Both the position numbers and the translations under genes were made by a program. 4,742 nt of DNA from a virus (lineage: Duplodnaviria; Heunggongvirae; Uroviricota; Caudoviricetes), in the IMG/VR virus record IMGVR_UViG_2740892258_000009. One strand, 5' to 3'. Position 1 is the first letter of the stretch. Each line of letters begins with the position of its first letter. The notes below the pieces were generated by a model, which was not told the origin of the DNA, searched no databases, and worked only from the letters and a program-made list of their open reading frames with translations. Shown in pieces: positions 1 to 4,742 of the stretch.

Positions 1-325
1 ATGGATTGGGTTATGAGCCCGTCGTCCGGTGATGCTCTTCTCTGTTTTGCAAAAAAGGACGGTACCAGCCGGAAGCAAGGGTACAAACTGGTACCGCCAG
101 GACTACACACAGCATAAAGTTGTGGTGCCGGGTGCCTCCCGGTGCCTGGCGAAGGTTGCACACCAGGCGGGTGGGTATCCACAGAAGGTCGACTGTCAGC
201 CTCAACCTTAACCCGCGTGCGCTGAGCCGCATTCACCACAACGCTAAGGATTCTCTCTGGTTGAAAATACTTAGCTGTTATGTGCCTGCTTTTAGCCACA
301 TCAGGCGAGGTGGACCTGGTTATTC

Positions 326-369
326 CCCAACAACAAGGATTCGGTTAATCTGGATATCCCCAACAACAA
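326..369 (+). repeat. Two direct copies of CCCCAACAACAA, 32 bp apart, 40-80 bp upstream of the 408 start
   Basis: CCCCAACAACAA at 326..337 and 358..369, read directly. Function as a regulator-binding site is inference. Confidence 0.5.
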
Positions 370-407
370 TAAGAGTATTCAATGTGATCGCTGAATTAAC
401 GGCAGCA

Positions 408-899
408 ATGACGGCTATTCGTGAAACAGCCCAGATTGCAAAACTAATGAACGAGGCAAAAACTCAAGCTGAAGTAAATGCGGCTATTGGTGAGCTGAAC
501 TCAAAGCTTGCGTCTATTCAGCGCGAATGCGTGTCTCTCGTTGAACTGGTGGGCTCTTATCAAGAAATAAATGCTTCTCTCAAAGCTAAAATTGCAGAAT
601 TCGAAAACTTTGAGGCTCAGACGGAAGGCTATATCCTTAACCAACTTGAGTCGGGTACTTTTGTATACTCGAAGGAGGTAATCGTGAACGGTGGCAGCAT
701 AACCATGCATCTTTGCCCAAAATGTTTTGGACAAAAGATAGTATCGATACTTCAACCATTCCCGGTTAGCGAAGATGAGCTTTTTCATAAAAGCAGGTGC
801 CTCCACTGTGAAAATAAGTTTCTGATGAATAAAAATCCGGATTACGTATCGCCTCCATCCATTGAGGAGTTGTCCAGAAAACTTAACGGCAATCTGTAG
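408..899 (+). CDS. Hypothetical protein, 163 aa: N-terminal coiled-coil-like helical region plus C-terminal C4 zinc ribbon (CPKC-x24-CLHC)
   Basis: The ORF-track frame 120..899 is protein-like only from the ATG at 408 (MTAIRETAQIAKLMNEAKTQAEV...); the 96 codons upstream are Arg/Ser/Pro-rich junk. An alternative GTG start at 384 follows a weak AAGAG. Heptad-like A/L/I/E/K-rich N-terminus. Stop TAG at 897..899 is followed by a hairpin plus T-run terminator. Confidence 0.6.
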   Translation: MTAIRETAQIAKLMNEAKTQAEVNAAIGELNSKLASIQRECVSLVELVGSYQEINASLKAKIAEFENFEAQTEGYILNQLESGTFVYSKEVIVNGGSITMHLCPKCFGQKIVSILQPFPVSEDELFHKSRCLHCENKFLMNKNPDYVSPPSIEELSRKLNGNL

Positions 900-938
900 A
901 TTACTACTGTTGTGGATATCCAGATTGTTAAAGAGCTA

Positions 939-961
939 AGCGTCCTGTAGGGCGCTTTTTT
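939..961 (+). terminator. Rho-independent terminator of the 408..899 gene
   Basis: Stem AGCGTCC (939..945), loop TGTA, stem GGGCGCT (950..956, one G-U pair), then a T-run to 961, starting 40 nt after the stop codon. Confidence 0.6.
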
Positions 962-1069
962 GTTGCTAACGAATCATCCGGTCATTCATACGCCACCGGC
1001 GGCTACTTCGTGGGCGTCCTGCCTGTCCGTGATAGCTTACATTATGTTGCTACTTAAAGTAGCAAAAAT

Positions 1070-1098
1070 CAACAACAAAAAGTAGATATTTGTTGTTG
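1070..1098. repeat. 10-bp perfect inverted repeat CAACAACAAA-N9-TTTGTTGTTG; possible operator or weak AU-rich leftward terminator
   Basis: Arms at 1070..1079 and 1089..1098. On the minus-strand RNA the hairpin is followed by AUUUUUG. It shares the CAACAACAA motif with 326..369. Confidence 0.5.
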
Positions 1099-1117
1099 TC
1101 TATGATTTTTCTATAAT
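1090..1117 (+). promoter_or_regulatory. Candidate sigma70 promoter: -35 TTGTTG (1090..1095), 16-bp spacer, consensus -10 TATAAT (1112..1117)
   Basis: Perfect TATAAT hexamer in an AT-rich tract; the -35 is weak (3/6) and overlaps the right arm of the 1070..1098 inverted repeat. There is no sizeable downstream ORF, so any transcript would be a small or antisense RNA. Confidence 0.3.
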
Positions 1118-1256
1118 TAATTGAAAGTTAAATGTTTTTGCTGATTTACTATGCTGTAAACTGAAAATATCGCACGAAGTTGGAGTAGGTATTGAGCATA
1201 GTGAATTATGAGGAGGGAGTTTTTTATGAGATTAATCAGGGAGAAAGAAGAGTAAA

Positions 1257-1276
1257 GCCCGGTTATGCGGCCGGGC
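1257..1276 (-). terminator. Probable Rho-independent terminator of the ParA-like gene (leftward transcript)
   Basis: GC-only 6-bp stem GCCCGG/CCGGGC with an 8-nt loop, 8 nt past the stop at 1284..1286. On the minus-strand RNA it is followed by the U/C-rich UUUACUCUUCUUU (interrupted U-tract). Confidence 0.5.
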
Positions 1277-1283
1277 ACATGCA

Positions 1284-2360
1284 TTACTTTGTAAGTTCTA
1301 GAACTCGTTGAGCCAGCCCTTTAAATTGTTCGTTAAAGGCGTCTCTGCTTGATTTCATTGTATTTAAGGCATGCCCAAATTGCCCTGAATCGCGAATTTG
1401 CTGATCACTGATGGAGAAAACAGGTGTCGCTAGTTGTTGGCTTATTGCGATTAATGAGTTGAAATCGGAAATATGCGCAAGATCATAGGCTGATAAATCT
1501 CCACTGACTGTTGTTTTGTTAATTGCATGTTGCACTTTATCTCGTGGAATTATGCAGGTAATTTTTTCTAGATTTGGCACTAAGATCGAATCAACAGCAT
1601 CACGGATAGCTGCCATCCATTTTTCGAAAGATTTTACAGGTGCTCCTTTACGCGGCCTGTATCTCTGCTGAATCATACCTAGAAACTGCGGTGCATTTTT
1701 AATTGATTGTGAAGAGTTACCATCATTATTTTCTTTAAATAATGCTAATTCTTTGTGCCAGCGAGGTATATTTTTTGAGAGAGAGCGAATTGCTTGCCAG
1801 CAAAAAAAGTCTGGAGCTACAGGTACGATAAAATAGTCACTTGACATGAGAACTACTTCATTTAAACCTCCAACATTAGGGCTGAGATCATAAAGAATGT
1901 AATCAATATTATTCTTCATGGCGATTAGCTGTAATATTTTTGGCAGGTTCCCTGGTATATTTCTTGTAGCAGGAATACCAGCAGCAATTTTTAGAGAAAC
2001 ACTTATCTGTGAATCTAAGTCCGAAACATCTAAATGTCCGGGAAGAAGCAGAAGGTTTTCATGCAGTGTAGGGTGTAATTTTCCCGTTTCTTTTTCAAGG
2101 TATGCTTCAGGTTGTCCGCCATTAATCAAATATTCTACAATAGGTCCAAGAGTTAAGTTATCTCTGCTAGAATAAAAAGAATCTAAACCCTCATCAATCT
2201 TTTCATAGCCAAGAACCATTCCTGTTAGATTACATTGCGAATCAAGGTCAACCATCAATACTTTCTTGCCTTCATCCGCAAGTGCCCATCCAAGATTGAA
2301 GGTTGTTGTGGTTTTACTTACCCCACCTTTATGATTAAAAAAACAAATTGATTTTGTCAT
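1284..2360 (-). CDS. ParA/MinD/Soj-family deviant Walker-A P-loop ATPase with ~110-aa C-terminal extension, 358 aa; orphan (no ParB in window)
   Basis: Walker A at residues 9-18 (NHKGGVSKTT, the KGGxxK[ST] signature), DLDSQ-type A-prime motif (VLMVDLDSQCN) and a hydrophobic-Asp Walker B (IDYILYDLSP). ATG at 2360 with AAAGGA 9 nt upstream. The gene looks AT-richer than the replication gene by eye (not computed). Confidence 0.85.
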   Translation of the reverse strand: MTKSICFFNHKGGVSKTTTTFNLGWALADEGKKVLMVDLDSQCNLTGMVLGYEKIDEGLDSFYSSRDNLTLGPIVEYLINGGQPEAYLEKETGKLHPTLHENLLLLPGHLDVSDLDSQISVSLKIAAGIPATRNIPGNLPKILQLIAMKNNIDYILYDLSPNVGGLNEVVLMSSDYFIVPVAPDFFCWQAIRSLSKNIPRWHKELALFKENNDGNSSQSIKNAPQFLGMIQQRYRPRKGAPVKSFEKWMAAIRDAVDSILVPNLEKITCIIPRDKVQHAINKTTVSGDLSAYDLAHISDFNSLIAISQQLATPVFSISDQQIRDSGQFGHALNTMKSSRDAFNEQFKGLAQRVLELTK

Positions 2361-2461
2361 ATTTCTCTATCCTTTCGACCCCCAGCATATTGTAATTTAC
2401 GCTGGGTGATTATTTTATATTGTTAATGATAATGTTTAATAAAAATAAGAGAGTAAAACAA

Positions 2462-2474
2462 CTATTAGTAATAG
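2462..2474. promoter_or_regulatory. Operator-like 13-bp palindrome CTATTAgTAATAG in the cI/ParA-like spacer
   Basis: Perfect dyad apart from the centre base; same CTATT-N5-TAG architecture as the two 13-mers between cI and cro. Lies ~100 bp upstream of the ParA-like ATG in a 170-bp AT-rich spacer. Confidence 0.3.
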
Positions 2475-2530
2475 CACTTGCTTGATAAATATTATTTTTT
2501 CACCTTTAGTTCTATAGTCTAAACGAAGAA

Positions 2531-3292
2531 CTAAAGCCGGTTGTATTTAATTGATTCGTGTATCAATGCTTTGCCCATAACATAAAGTTGATCTTGGGAC
2601 TTCTCATCAATGTACCATTTCTCATAGGCTGGATTATCCGAAAGAACGGCGAGTTTGTTGCCTTGCATTTGTAGACGTTTAACGTGGAACGTCTTACCAT
2701 AAACGAAAGAGTAAACACCATCAGTTTGGAAGTTGCGAACAGAAATGTCGACAAACAGTCGATCTCCGGAAACTAGAGTAGGGGACATGCTGTCGCCATT
2801 TACAGTCATAACTTTAATATCATCTTGAGAACGATTACCGAAAAGAGAACGGGCATGCTCTGTTGTGAACTCAATGGCGTAGAGCACATCAACATAGTCT
2901 GAAAGCATATAGGTTCCAGGTCCTGCGCTAACGCTAAGATCCAAAACTTCTATCCTGTATACATCGGGTTTTGTTGGATTGGGGATGCTTGCCATTTCCT
3001 TACATCCTTCTCTCTCGCCAACACCATATTCTAAATATGAAGCTGATACCCCCAGAGCCAATGCAAGTTTATTCATGACAGAGGCACGAGGCTTCGCAGC
3101 GCCGATTGTGTATCGCCGCGCCATTTCATATGTAACGCCCACAAGACTTTTGAGTTGGGTGACAGAAATTCCCTTGTTTGTCATTAGCTCGTTTAGTCTC
3201 TTGGCGAAATCTGGATACTTCTGTTCTTCTACCATAGGTAGAAGGTTACTCGCATCACATACGCTAGTCATTTCTATTTTAAGTAGTTGCAT
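2531..3292 (-). CDS. CI-type phage repressor: N-terminal HTH plus C-terminal S24 (LexA-like) autopeptidase
   Basis: HTH segment GISVTQLKSLVGVTYEMARRYTIG; Ala-Gly cleavage dipeptide in LSVSAGPG (residues 123-124 of the 253-aa frame); catalytic Ser in VNGDSMSPT and Lys in FHVKRL, 36 residues apart. Start is uncertain: ATG at 3292, 3271 or 3235 (253, 246 or 234 aa), and the 13-mer at 3274..3286 favours 3271 or 3235. No SD before any of them, consistent with a leaderless transcript as for lambda cI. Confidence 0.9.
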   Translation of the reverse strand: MQLLKIEMTSVCDASNLLPMVEEQKYPDFAKRLNELMTNKGISVTQLKSLVGVTYEMARRYTIGAAKPRASVMNKLALALGVSASYLEYGVGEREGCKEMASIPNPTKPDVYRIEVLDLSVSAGPGTYMLSDYVDVLYAIEFTTEHARSLFGNRSQDDIKVMTVNGDSMSPTLVSGDRLFVDISVRNFQTDGVYSFVYGKTFHVKRLQMQGNKLAVLSDNPAYEKWYIDEKSQDQLYVMGKALIHESIKYNRL

Positions 3293-3333
3293 TCTGCTAT
3301 TTTAAGTAGCATCATCCCTCTGAATTTCAGAGG
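3274..3333. promoter_or_regulatory. Divergent cI/cro control region: two 13-bp direct repeats CTATTTTAAGTAG (3274..3286, 3297..3309) and a 17-bp palindrome CCTCTGAA-t-TTCAGAGG (3317..3333)
   Basis: The 13-mers are 23 bp apart and each is an imperfect dyad (CTA.TT.AA.TAG). Their reverse complements contain TAAAAT, a -10-like hexamer placed to start a leaderless cI message at the 3271 ATG. The 17-bp palindrome overlaps the cro SD (GGAG at 3331..3334). Confidence 0.5.
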
Positions 3334-3341
3334 AGAAAGGT

Positions 3342-3605
3342 ATGTCATCTCAAAACTACACAGAGAAAGCAGTAAAAGCTGCGGGAAAATCTTTATCTGA
3401 AGTAGCCCGTCACTTTGGTTTTAAGTCCACTCAATCCGTCGCTAATTGGGTAATTAACAATCAAGTCCCGTCAGAACGGGTTTTACAACTTTGTGAGTTG
3501 GGAAACTGGTCCGTGACCCCTCATGAACTGCGTCCTGATATTTACCCCAATCCAAATGATGGATTACCTGAGTGCTATTCAAAAGTTAGCGGTTCAGCTG
3601 CGTAA
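3342..3605 (+). CDS. Cro-like early repressor, YdaS-type Cro/CI-family HTH protein, 87 aa
   Basis: Divergent from cI, GGAG SD 7 nt upstream. Motifs typical of YdaS-like prophage Cro proteins (AVKAAGKSLSEVARHFGFKSTQSVANWV... LRPDIYP). Stop TAA at 3603..3605. Confidence 0.85.
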   Translation: MSSQNYTEKAVKAAGKSLSEVARHFGFKSTQSVANWVINNQVPSERVLQLCELGNWSVTPHELRPDIYPNPNDGLPECYSKVSGSAA

Positions 3606-3633
3606 ACGTAACCACAGAAACGAGGAGTTAACC

Positions 3634-4032
3634 GTGGGTAAGCATCACTGGAAAATAGAAAAACAGCCTGAGTGGTACGTGAAAGCTGTCAGAAAAACTA
3701 TCGCAGCGTTGCCGGGGGGTTACGCTGAAGCTGCTGACTGGCTGGACGTAACAGAGAACGCATTATTTAACCGCCTTCGTGCCGATGGCGATCAGATTTT
3801 CCCGCTGGGATGGGCAATGGTTTTACAGCGTGCTGGTGGTACCTCTCAATTTCGAAGCTGCAGGAGCATGCAGCACTGGTCTACAAAATCTTTTGTGTTT
3901 CAGAAAGTAATGACGCCCGCGAGTGTGCAGCTCCGGGCGTCGTGGCGTCGATTGCTTCTGGTTGTGGAGAAACTAACGCATGAACAGTTTAACAACACAC
4001 TACCGTCGCTCGCAACTGTGTGGAGAAACTAA
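3634..4032 (+). CDS. cII-position early regulator, as present truncated by a frameshifting 56-bp tandem duplication (probable pseudogene or altered C-terminus)
   Basis: GTG at 3634 follows a strong SD GAGGAG (3622..3627, 6-nt spacer), in the frame of track ORF 3523..4032. ATGs at 3523 and 3556/3559 overlap cro and lack an SD. The frame stops at TAA 4030..4032 inside copy 2 of the duplication. Assignment to a CII/YdaT-like family rests on gene position plus a loose resemblance and is unverified. Confidence 0.55.
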   Translation: MGKHHWKIEKQPEWYVKAVRKTIAALPGGYAEAADWLDVTENALFNRLRADGDQIFPLGWAMVLQRAGGTSQFRSCRSMQHWSTKSFVFQKVMTPASVQLRASWRRLLLVVEKLTHEQFNNTLPSLATVWRN

Positions 4033-4074
4033 CGCATGAACAGTTTAACAACACACTACCGTCGCTCGCAACTG
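3963..4074 (+). repeat. Perfect 56-bp direct tandem duplication (3963..4018 = 4019..4074)
   Basis: Base-by-base identity of TGTGGAGAAACTAACGCATGAACAGTTTAACAACACACTACCGTCGCTCGCAACTG in two adjacent copies; flanking bases differ. 56 is not a multiple of 3. Confidence 0.95.
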
Positions 4075-4374
4075 ATTGCGCTTCCTGTACCGGGTGGAAA
4101 AGCGAAGGTGGAGTATTGCTATGCAGTAAATGTACCAGGTGACAGGGAAATTGTAACCCACAGCTTTGCTGAGTGGGCTGTGGGTGATTTCAACCGGCAG
4201 AAGGAGACAGTCCTTTGCGACAAGTTAACCGCTGGTTCAAAGATCACTACGGAGTGCCCGTCAGAGTCATTCGTTGGGAACCGGAAACACAACGTGTTAT
4301 CTACCTCCGCGAAGGCTATGAGCATGAGTGCTTCAGCCCGCTCGAACAGTTTCGTCGTAAATTCAGGGAAATAG
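4036..4374 (+). CDS. Hypothetical protein, 112 aa (track ORF); may be an artefact of the frameshift
   Basis: ATG lies inside copy 2 of the duplication with only a distant GGAG (10-nt spacer). Product is Ser-rich with no motif I recognise. Mutually exclusive with the 4215..4394 model. Confidence 0.3.
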
Positions 4375-4394
4375 AGGTCGGTCATGAGCACTAA
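4215..4394 (+). CDS. Alternative small ORF, 59 aa, TTG start; hypothetical
   Basis: Not in the ORF track. AAGGAG at 4201..4206, 8-nt spacer, TTG at 4215. Product (L/M)[58 protein letters not shown] uses preferred CGT/CGC Arg codons; stop TAA 4392..4394 overlaps the replication gene start by 11 nt. Confidence 0.3.
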
Positions 4395-4742
4395 ATTAAC
4401 CGGCTATGTATGGGATGGTTGCGCTGCATCAGGCATGAAATTATCCAGCGTGGCAATTATGGCCCGCCTGGCTGATTTCAGTAATGACGAAGGTGTGTGC
4501 TGGCCATCAATTGAAACCATTGCCCGCCAGATTGGCGCGGGGATGAGTACCGTCAGAACGGCTATCGCACGGCTGGAAGCAGAAGGCTGGTTAACGCGTA
4601 AGGCGCGTCGCCAGGGTAACCGCAATGCGTCGAATGTTTATCAGCTTAACGTTGCGAAGCTTCAGGCAGCGGCATTTTCTCAACTGTCAGATTCTGACCC
4701 GTCAAAATCTGACGCATCAAAATCTGACGCATCAAAATCTGA
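4384..4742 (+). CDS. Phage replication initiation protein (lambda O-like), N-terminal HTH DNA-binding domain; partial, runs past the window end
   Basis: ATG at 4384 with AGAGG SD 6-7 nt upstream; open to the window edge. [70 protein letters not shown] matches the N-terminal HTH pattern of phage O-like initiators. Position after cro and the cII-position gene matches lambdoid order. Confidence 0.8.
   Translation, partial: MSTKLTGYVWDGCAASGMKLSSVAIMARLADFSNDEGVCWPSIETIARQIGAGMSTVRTAIARLEAEGWLTRKARRQGNRNASNVYQLNVAKLQAAAFSQLSDSDPSKSDASKSDASKS
4687..4742 (+). repeat. 15-bp tandem repeats TCAAAATCTGACGCA inside the replication gene; candidate origin iterons
   Basis: One degenerate copy (4687..4701, 11/15 matches), two perfect copies (4702..4716, 4717..4731) and a truncated copy to the window edge. 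In frame, encoding SDSDP-SKSDA-SKSDA-SKSD. The repeat is certain; the iteron role is inference. Confidence 0.8.

Follow-up and report, generated by a model that had tools for sequence, protein, structure and literature searches.

The window analysed here, a stretch of 4,742 nt, comes from a lambdoid prophage of E. coli, of which it is the immunity and early-right region. It carries a gene for a ParA-family ATPase on the minus strand (1284-2360, 358 aa, Pfam AAA_31/CbiA), a cI-like S24 repressor gene, also on the minus strand (2531-3292), a YdaS/Cro-like gene (3342-3605), a disrupted YmfL/CII-like gene (around 3839/3840 and 3963-4074), a DUF4222 gene (4215-4394) and, on the plus strand, the 5′ part of a replication initiator gene (4384-4742), an ORF of 119 codons that begins at ATG 4384 and runs off the window. 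Over positions 1-3839 the sequence matches E. coli APEC O18 at 100% identity, and the final 358 bases share 98-99% identity with 'replication protein' genes of SfIV, SfII, Kati and other phages. DNA similar to this region was matched in 2,778 of 5,426 complete E. coli genomes.

The ParA-family gene adjoins the cI-like repressor gene and is an orphan, no ParB-like partner having been seen; it is missing at the corresponding place in phage SfIV and may be an accessory or defence gene. The YmfL/CII-like gene is disrupted jointly by a perfect tandem duplication of 56 bp inside it (3963-4074) and, relative to APEC O18, by a 208-bp deletion at 3839/3840 (4541-4747 of the APEC O18 locus, hereafter L001). 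This arrangement occurs in 0 of the 5,426 complete E. coli genomes and in 0 IMG/VR contigs, and is therefore either a rare pseudogenisation or an assembly artefact.

In near-identical relatives the full-length initiator measures 313-318 aa, namely 318 aa in APEC O18 (L001 5237-6193, 957 nt) and 313 aa in SfIV (L002 3000-3941), and the gene matches PHROG 391, 'replication initiation O-like', with an E value of 2e-134. Judged by sequence similarity, it is O-like in its C-terminal domain only. Residues 136-282 resemble the O C-terminal domain of lambda, 21, 434 and 933W (tblastn, 35.6% identity, E 1e-18), and the domain, which lies beyond the window, aligns with phage 21 O at 30% identity over 216 aa (blastp, E 2e-26). 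The N-terminal part is predicted to be a winged-helix DNA-binding domain, covering residues 23-70 (4450-4593, plus strand; Pfam HTH_36, E 8e-12), with weaker Pfam matches to GntR, MarR, DnaD_N and RP-C; its nearest solved structures are MarR-type winged helices, at an E value of only about 0.01. A search of the initiator for Phage_rep_O (PF04492) gave no match up to E 0.1, where HTH_36 reached E 4e-11; for comparison, PF04492 scores E 6e-36 on phage 21 O and E 7e-38 on P22 gp18. The label 'O-like' given to the gene in the initial annotation is thus borne out by the C-terminal domain and fails for the N-terminal one, which belongs to HTH_36 and not to Phage_rep_O.

Downstream of the initiator, elements of the APEC O18 type carry genes for a PerC-family protein, a LexA-domain protein and RusA. 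The gene at the position of lambda P (L001 6190-6684) overlaps the initiator stop codon (ATGA) and encodes a product of 164 aa, the C-terminal part of which is PerC/ANR-like and the N-terminal half of no known type. The annotation of the non-structural half of SfIV lists no helicase, loader or primase, and the initiator comes without a P-like, DnaC-like or DnaB-like gene in SfIV-type phages, which have the initiator as their sole replication gene; the phiP27 relative does carry DnaC-like and DnaB genes.

The initial annotation had described three and a half copies of a 15-bp tandem repeat at 4687-4742, lying in frame just past the N-terminal helix-turn-helix domain and cut off by the window end. 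Both Tandem Repeats Finder, which returned a period-15 array at 4693-4742 (3.3 copies, 94% matches, score 72), and direct reading of the sequence confirm this. All units are on the plus strand: unit 1, TCAGATTCTGACCCG (4687-4701), is degenerate and agrees with the consensus at 11/15 positions, units 2 (4702-4716) and 3 (4717-4731) are perfect copies of TCAAAATCTGACGCA, and unit 4, TCAAAATCTGA (4732-4742), is partial and stops at the window edge. The count was a fair one, the window total being 3.7 units; the remaining parts of the putative origin are known from relatives. As 4687-4384 is divisible by 3, unit 1 begins at codon 102, in frame, and the repeats come after the N-terminal DNA-binding domain because HTH_36 spans residues 23-70. 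Their translation, SDSDP-SKSDA-SKSDA-SKSD, is the SKSDA-repeat linker that had been proposed.

The units are palindromic at the DNA level, in the form TCAGA-A/T-TCTGA or CGTCA-N5-TGACG. Unit 1, whose sequence is identical across 82/82 near-identical loci, contains the 11-bp palindrome TCAGA-T-TCTGA, and the dyad CGTCA-N5-TGACG is found in unit 2. Searching for the 12-nt core TCAAAATCTGAC with at most 2 mismatches returned 4 matches in the window, all in 4686-4728, against 0.61 expected in the shuffled window, where 4 matches were reached in 1/200 shuffles. No further copy of the motif was found anywhere in the 4.7-kb window outside the array.

The array was followed beyond the window in full-length relatives, as the initial annotation had proposed, and proved to be made of a tandem run of 5-7 units and a further, conserved copy distal to it. 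Tandem copy number was compared in 82 near-identical loci of E. coli and Shigella: 76 have 5 units, five have 6 and a single one has 7. Two consecutive units ending in GACGCA are restricted to the rarer loci with at least 6 units, and the array in the window begins like this class. The continuation is visible in APEC O18 at L001 5582-5710, where the part seen in the window is followed by more 15-bp units, an 18-bp spacer, the distal copy CCGTCAGAATCTGG, which stands 33 bp past the last tandem unit, and then GGGGATCCGTCAGTAAAATCAAAACATGATCCGTCAGATAAAAAAAC. Across genera, 3-9 units were counted per locus (80 loci), with a 15-bp spacing in 232/312 intervals between units. With a centre-to-centre distance of 15 bp, adjacent sites abut and lie on different faces of the helix.

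An adjacent AT-rich region, also anticipated by the initial annotation, is present in the relatives. The least stable 40-mer of the whole 957-nt gene, AGTAAAATCAAAACATGATCCGTCAGATAAAAAAACTTCT, starts 6 nt past the distal repeat (L001) and has 70% A+T; it is a modest element, which ranks only in the top 5% within the 9.6-kb locus and is weaker than the AT-rich region of lambda. This A-rich stretch is conserved in 75 loci. It contains two GATC sites 24 bp apart (L001 5661-5700) in 60/78 loci, over a background of 4.2 per kb. Genes for Dam-type adenine methylases are located directly 3′ of the initiator in phiNP and YeP3 (L004 3370-4251 and L005 3977-4690) and have also been reported for SfII and SfV; the GATC pair and the neighbouring methylase genes hint at methylation control of the origin. 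No DnaA box was found within L001 5237-6193 at up to 1 mismatch, and a search for promoters returned none. The spacer that separates the array from the distal repeat contains, on the minus strand, a terminator-like hairpin with a T-run (L001 5634-5647), the stem of which is not conserved in most relatives.

Conservation at silent positions was investigated in 80 loci from many enterobacterial genera, with a median N-terminal protein identity of 78% and a minimum of 46%, in which a strict S-K/E-S-D peptide pattern identified 389 units. The motif TCA[A/G]AATCTGAC recurs across enterobacterial loci with its silent codon positions kept. In these 389 units the first Ser codon is TCA in 87%, Lys is encoded by AAA in 242/242 and Glu by GAA in 107/108, while the codon for the Ser at the third residue is TCT and the Asp codon GAC in 79% each. 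In the remaining gene, TCA and TCT account for 16% and 9% of Ser codons and AAA for 62% of Lys codons. Silent sites are scrambled in the adjacent N-terminal domain, where the commonest codon averages 0.54 in conserved columns. After dereplication to 47 loci, Lys is still AAA in 136/136, and the same codon is used for 40% of identical-residue pairs in the N-terminal domain, vs 86% in the single-copy stretch past the array. This single-copy stretch, GTTTTsACCCGTCAGAATCTGGnGGGGATCCGTCAGTAAA, shows almost no variation in 75 loci, even at third codon positions. Overlapping ORFs were considered as the cause of silent-site conservation and rejected, only short mechanical ORFs being present.

Other features also point to the DNA rather than to the protein. 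K/E, S/P and D/H swaps, which are radical for the protein, occur where the DNA differs by one base, and phiP27 and one Citrobacter locus have an intact TCAGAATCTG in another reading frame, two out-of-frame copies that probably go back to one and the same event. Most matches to the motif fall in the 260-nt linker region, 396 on the plus strand, against 73 matches on both strands in the other ~400 kb of the loci. Taken at the codon level, these data indicate that selection is acting on the DNA of the repeats and not on the encoded peptide.

The repeats are inherited together with the N-terminal domain. Seed-based grouping of 79 complete genes sorted their C-terminal domains into a lambda-O-like class (17 loci), a Pfam Phg_2220_C class (58 loci), a phiP27 type (2 loci) and a fourth class (2 loci); single-linkage clustering of these domains was dropped as shared tails merged everything. 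In phiNP, YeP3 and phiP27, for instance, the N-terminal domain and the repeats are joined to other C-terminal domains, and the genes up- and downstream of the initiator vary between loci. With at least four C-terminal classes and varied flanks, the HTH_36 domain is therefore the one element that always goes with the repeats, and the junction to the varying C-terminal domains falls just past the conserved stretch. A module junction may sit exactly at the right edge of the origin, given that Providencia DNA past the A-rich stretch, TCGTCGCAGAATTCTGACGAATCC (L057 about 2990-3030), is very similar to the lambda/21 sequence TCGTCCGAGAATTCTGGCGAATCC (L167 1262-1290), which stands just past the AT-rich region there.

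More distant HTH_36 initiators also carry repeats at the same position, as 21/24-bp tandem palindromes directly past the region coding for the binding domain (L169 1727-1792 and L170 1702-1767). The initiator of phiXuzhou21-Stx2a has three copies of GGGGTGGGGCAGGAGCTGCCC, with the palindrome GGGCAG-GAG-CTGCCC, and that of Vibrio phage D186 has three copies of CCTAGTGACAAAATGTCACCA, with the palindrome GTGACAAAATGTCAC; the HTH_36 gene of Salmonella phage SI8 showed no clear repeat array. In this small sample, the repeats would fit the pattern expected of binding domains that each have their own sites just downstream, and intragenic origins may therefore be general for the HTH_36 family.

The origin of lambda, with its iterons, lies inside the O gene and is bound by the N-terminal domain of O. 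Lambdoid origins are located in mid-O and consist of iterons and an AT-rich tract, with O acting as dimers; lambda has 4 iterons and Stx phages have 6, the extra iterons lengthening the O protein (PMC7466680). In phage 21, four gpO sites are annotated at gene nt 349-434, followed by an A-rich run and then by the C-terminal domain, and in P22 the annotated origin inside gene 18 has TCGGTAAAAC-type repeats followed by an A-rich run. The lambda-like layout claimed in the initial annotation stands, as the order of parts read from the sequence (DNA-binding domain, iterons, AT-rich stretch, C-terminal domain) is equal to that of the annotated lambda/21 and P22 origins. As in lambda, 21, 434 and Stx phages, the putative origin would be within the initiator gene, between the DNA-binding and C-terminal domains; as in lambda and 21, dyad-symmetric repeats are followed by an A-rich stretch. 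The C-terminal domain and that of lambda O are homologous, the number of units varies among relatives and lengthens the protein as in lambda and Stx phages, and, as in lambda, the gene is without a DnaA box.

Other features set the SfIV-type initiators apart. The N-terminal domain is HTH_36 here and Phage_rep_O in lambda, the unit TCAAAATCTGA is unrelated to the lambda iteron TCCCTCAAAACGAGGGA, and the units abut every 15 bp, whereas lambda, P22 and the more distant HTH_36 initiators have their sites some 20-24 bp apart. Compared with lambda, the A-rich stretch is shorter, and it has the two conserved GATC sites. No P gene follows the initiator in SfIV-type phages, and the lambda pathway is therefore not transferable as it stands. 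P22 has in common with these elements an annotated origin inside the initiator gene and the same lambdoid early-right operon; in contrast, gp18 has a Phage_rep_O N-terminal domain and no significant similarity to the HTH_36 SfIV-type initiators (E 0.24), and gene 18 is followed by a gene for a DnaB-type helicase. Iteron plasmids (RepA/pi/TrfA) are likewise comparable in that a winged-helix initiator goes with direct repeats in tandem, next to which lies an AT-rich unwinding element. Plasmid iterons are found outside the rep gene, usually about 22 bp apart and usually with DnaA boxes, whereas the repeats here are inside the gene, 15 bp apart and have no DnaA box. HTH_36 Rep proteins have been reported for Paracoccus plasmids (PMC3832669).

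We consider it likely that the repeats are iterons of the phage origin, which would be of the lambda type, sit within the part of the initiator gene that codes for the linker and have the repeats at its left end. They could instead be a slippage-prone coding minisatellite, that is, a flexible Ser/Lys/Asp linker of variable length whose DNA is itself functionless; this is the variable-copy linker that the initial annotation had named as the case against its own reading, and conservation at silent positions contradicts it. Copy number does change by whole units (5, 6 or 7 among near-identical prophages, 3-9 across genera) and the peptide is repetitive, hydrophilic and linker-like, as such a minisatellite would be, but silent positions are far better kept than they are in the domain that flanks the repeats in these genes, and the most conserved DNA of the gene is the single-copy stretch past the array, the conservation of which slippage or gene conversion cannot explain because the stretch is not repeated, so that it is beyond homogenising by slippage. 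A functionless array also has to be reconciled with radical amino-acid changes paired with minimal DNA changes, with the motif occurring out of frame and with units that are palindromes, and we regard it as very improbable. A further reading takes the conserved DNA for a recombination 'linker' where modules join, its similarity maintained by the swapping of C-terminal domains between phages, or for a site of another protein, for example the neighbouring ParA-type ATPase; we find it hardly credible. The junction to four C-terminal classes just past the conserved stretch is what a recombination linker would predict; recent exchange, however, would leave the N-terminal DNA similar too, where silent sites are scrambled, and recombination accounts for neither palindromic units nor a tandem array. 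As for ParA, a gene of this family is indeed located 2.3 kb upstream in the window, yet SfIV has the same repeats with no ParA gene at the corresponding place.

A different question is whether the units are true initiator sites that serve control (autoregulation, a transcription roadblock, or titration and pairing), with the origin elsewhere. The repeats of iteron plasmids serve to limit replication as well as to start it, sites that abut every 15 bp are unusual in an origin and there is no helicase loader gene nearby, all of which would suit a purely regulatory array. Against this, the conserved and least stable A-rich stretch directly adjoins the sites, and the parts follow the same order as in the proven lambda and P22 origins. 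The motif has no other copy in the 4.7-kb window and is rare elsewhere in the loci, so that no second cluster is available as the real origin within the regions examined. A role in control with an origin elsewhere is, on balance, improbable.

The preferred reading, iterons of an intragenic origin, can be put in mechanistic terms: this is very probably a lambda-type origin run by an HTH_36 initiator instead of a Phage_rep_O one. Binding of the sites by the protein, unwinding of the DNA, firing of the origin and the route of helicase recruitment are what we infer from the arrangement. Each 15-bp unit would be a dyad-symmetric site with the core TCA[A/G]AATCTGA and the arms CGTCA/TGACG, bound by a dimer of the HTH_36 winged-helix domain, which is the presumed reader of the iterons. 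The 5-7 contiguous sites, together with the one 33 bp further on, would then build a nucleoprotein complex that destabilises the adjoining A-rich stretch of about 45 bp with its two GATC sites, after which the lambda-O-homologous C-terminal domain would bring in the host helicase machinery. The SKSDA/P peptide encoded by the repeats would mainly be a tolerant linker.

A bolder version, in which the origin is of a distinct design and not a copy of the lambda one, with helical 15-bp packing, GATC gating and initiation without a phage loader, seems to us unlikely. Under such a design, abutting palindromes every 15 bp would have initiator dimers wound helically round the DNA, and the conserved GATC pair in the unwinding element could gate firing by Dam methylation or SeqA. 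The SfIV-type C-terminal domain, with the loader absent, would have to engage host DnaB/DnaC directly or via the PerC-like protein encoded at the P position.

The layout is a textbook one, while the sites specific to this family appear to be unannotated in the records examined and undescribed in the literature searched. No origin is annotated in the database records examined for SfIV-type elements, and the SfIV genome paper just names a 'replication module'. Our literature search found no experimental report on SfIV-type HTH_36 initiators or their origin and no description of the SfIV-type origin; an earlier mention is possible, since its coverage did not extend to the genome papers of SfV and phiP27 or to the main review of phage replication modules.

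The analysis places a probable origin for a prophage group that is very common in E. coli and Shigella and to which the serotype-converting SfII and SfIV belong. It also offers a clean example of DNA-level selection hidden in a protein-coding repeat and calls for caution when such genes are recoded, annotated or used to measure selection. The lambda solution, in which the origin and its matching DNA-binding domain form one exchangeable module, would have been reused here by an unrelated binding domain, and this raises the practical question of how a lambda-O-like C-terminal domain may work without P.
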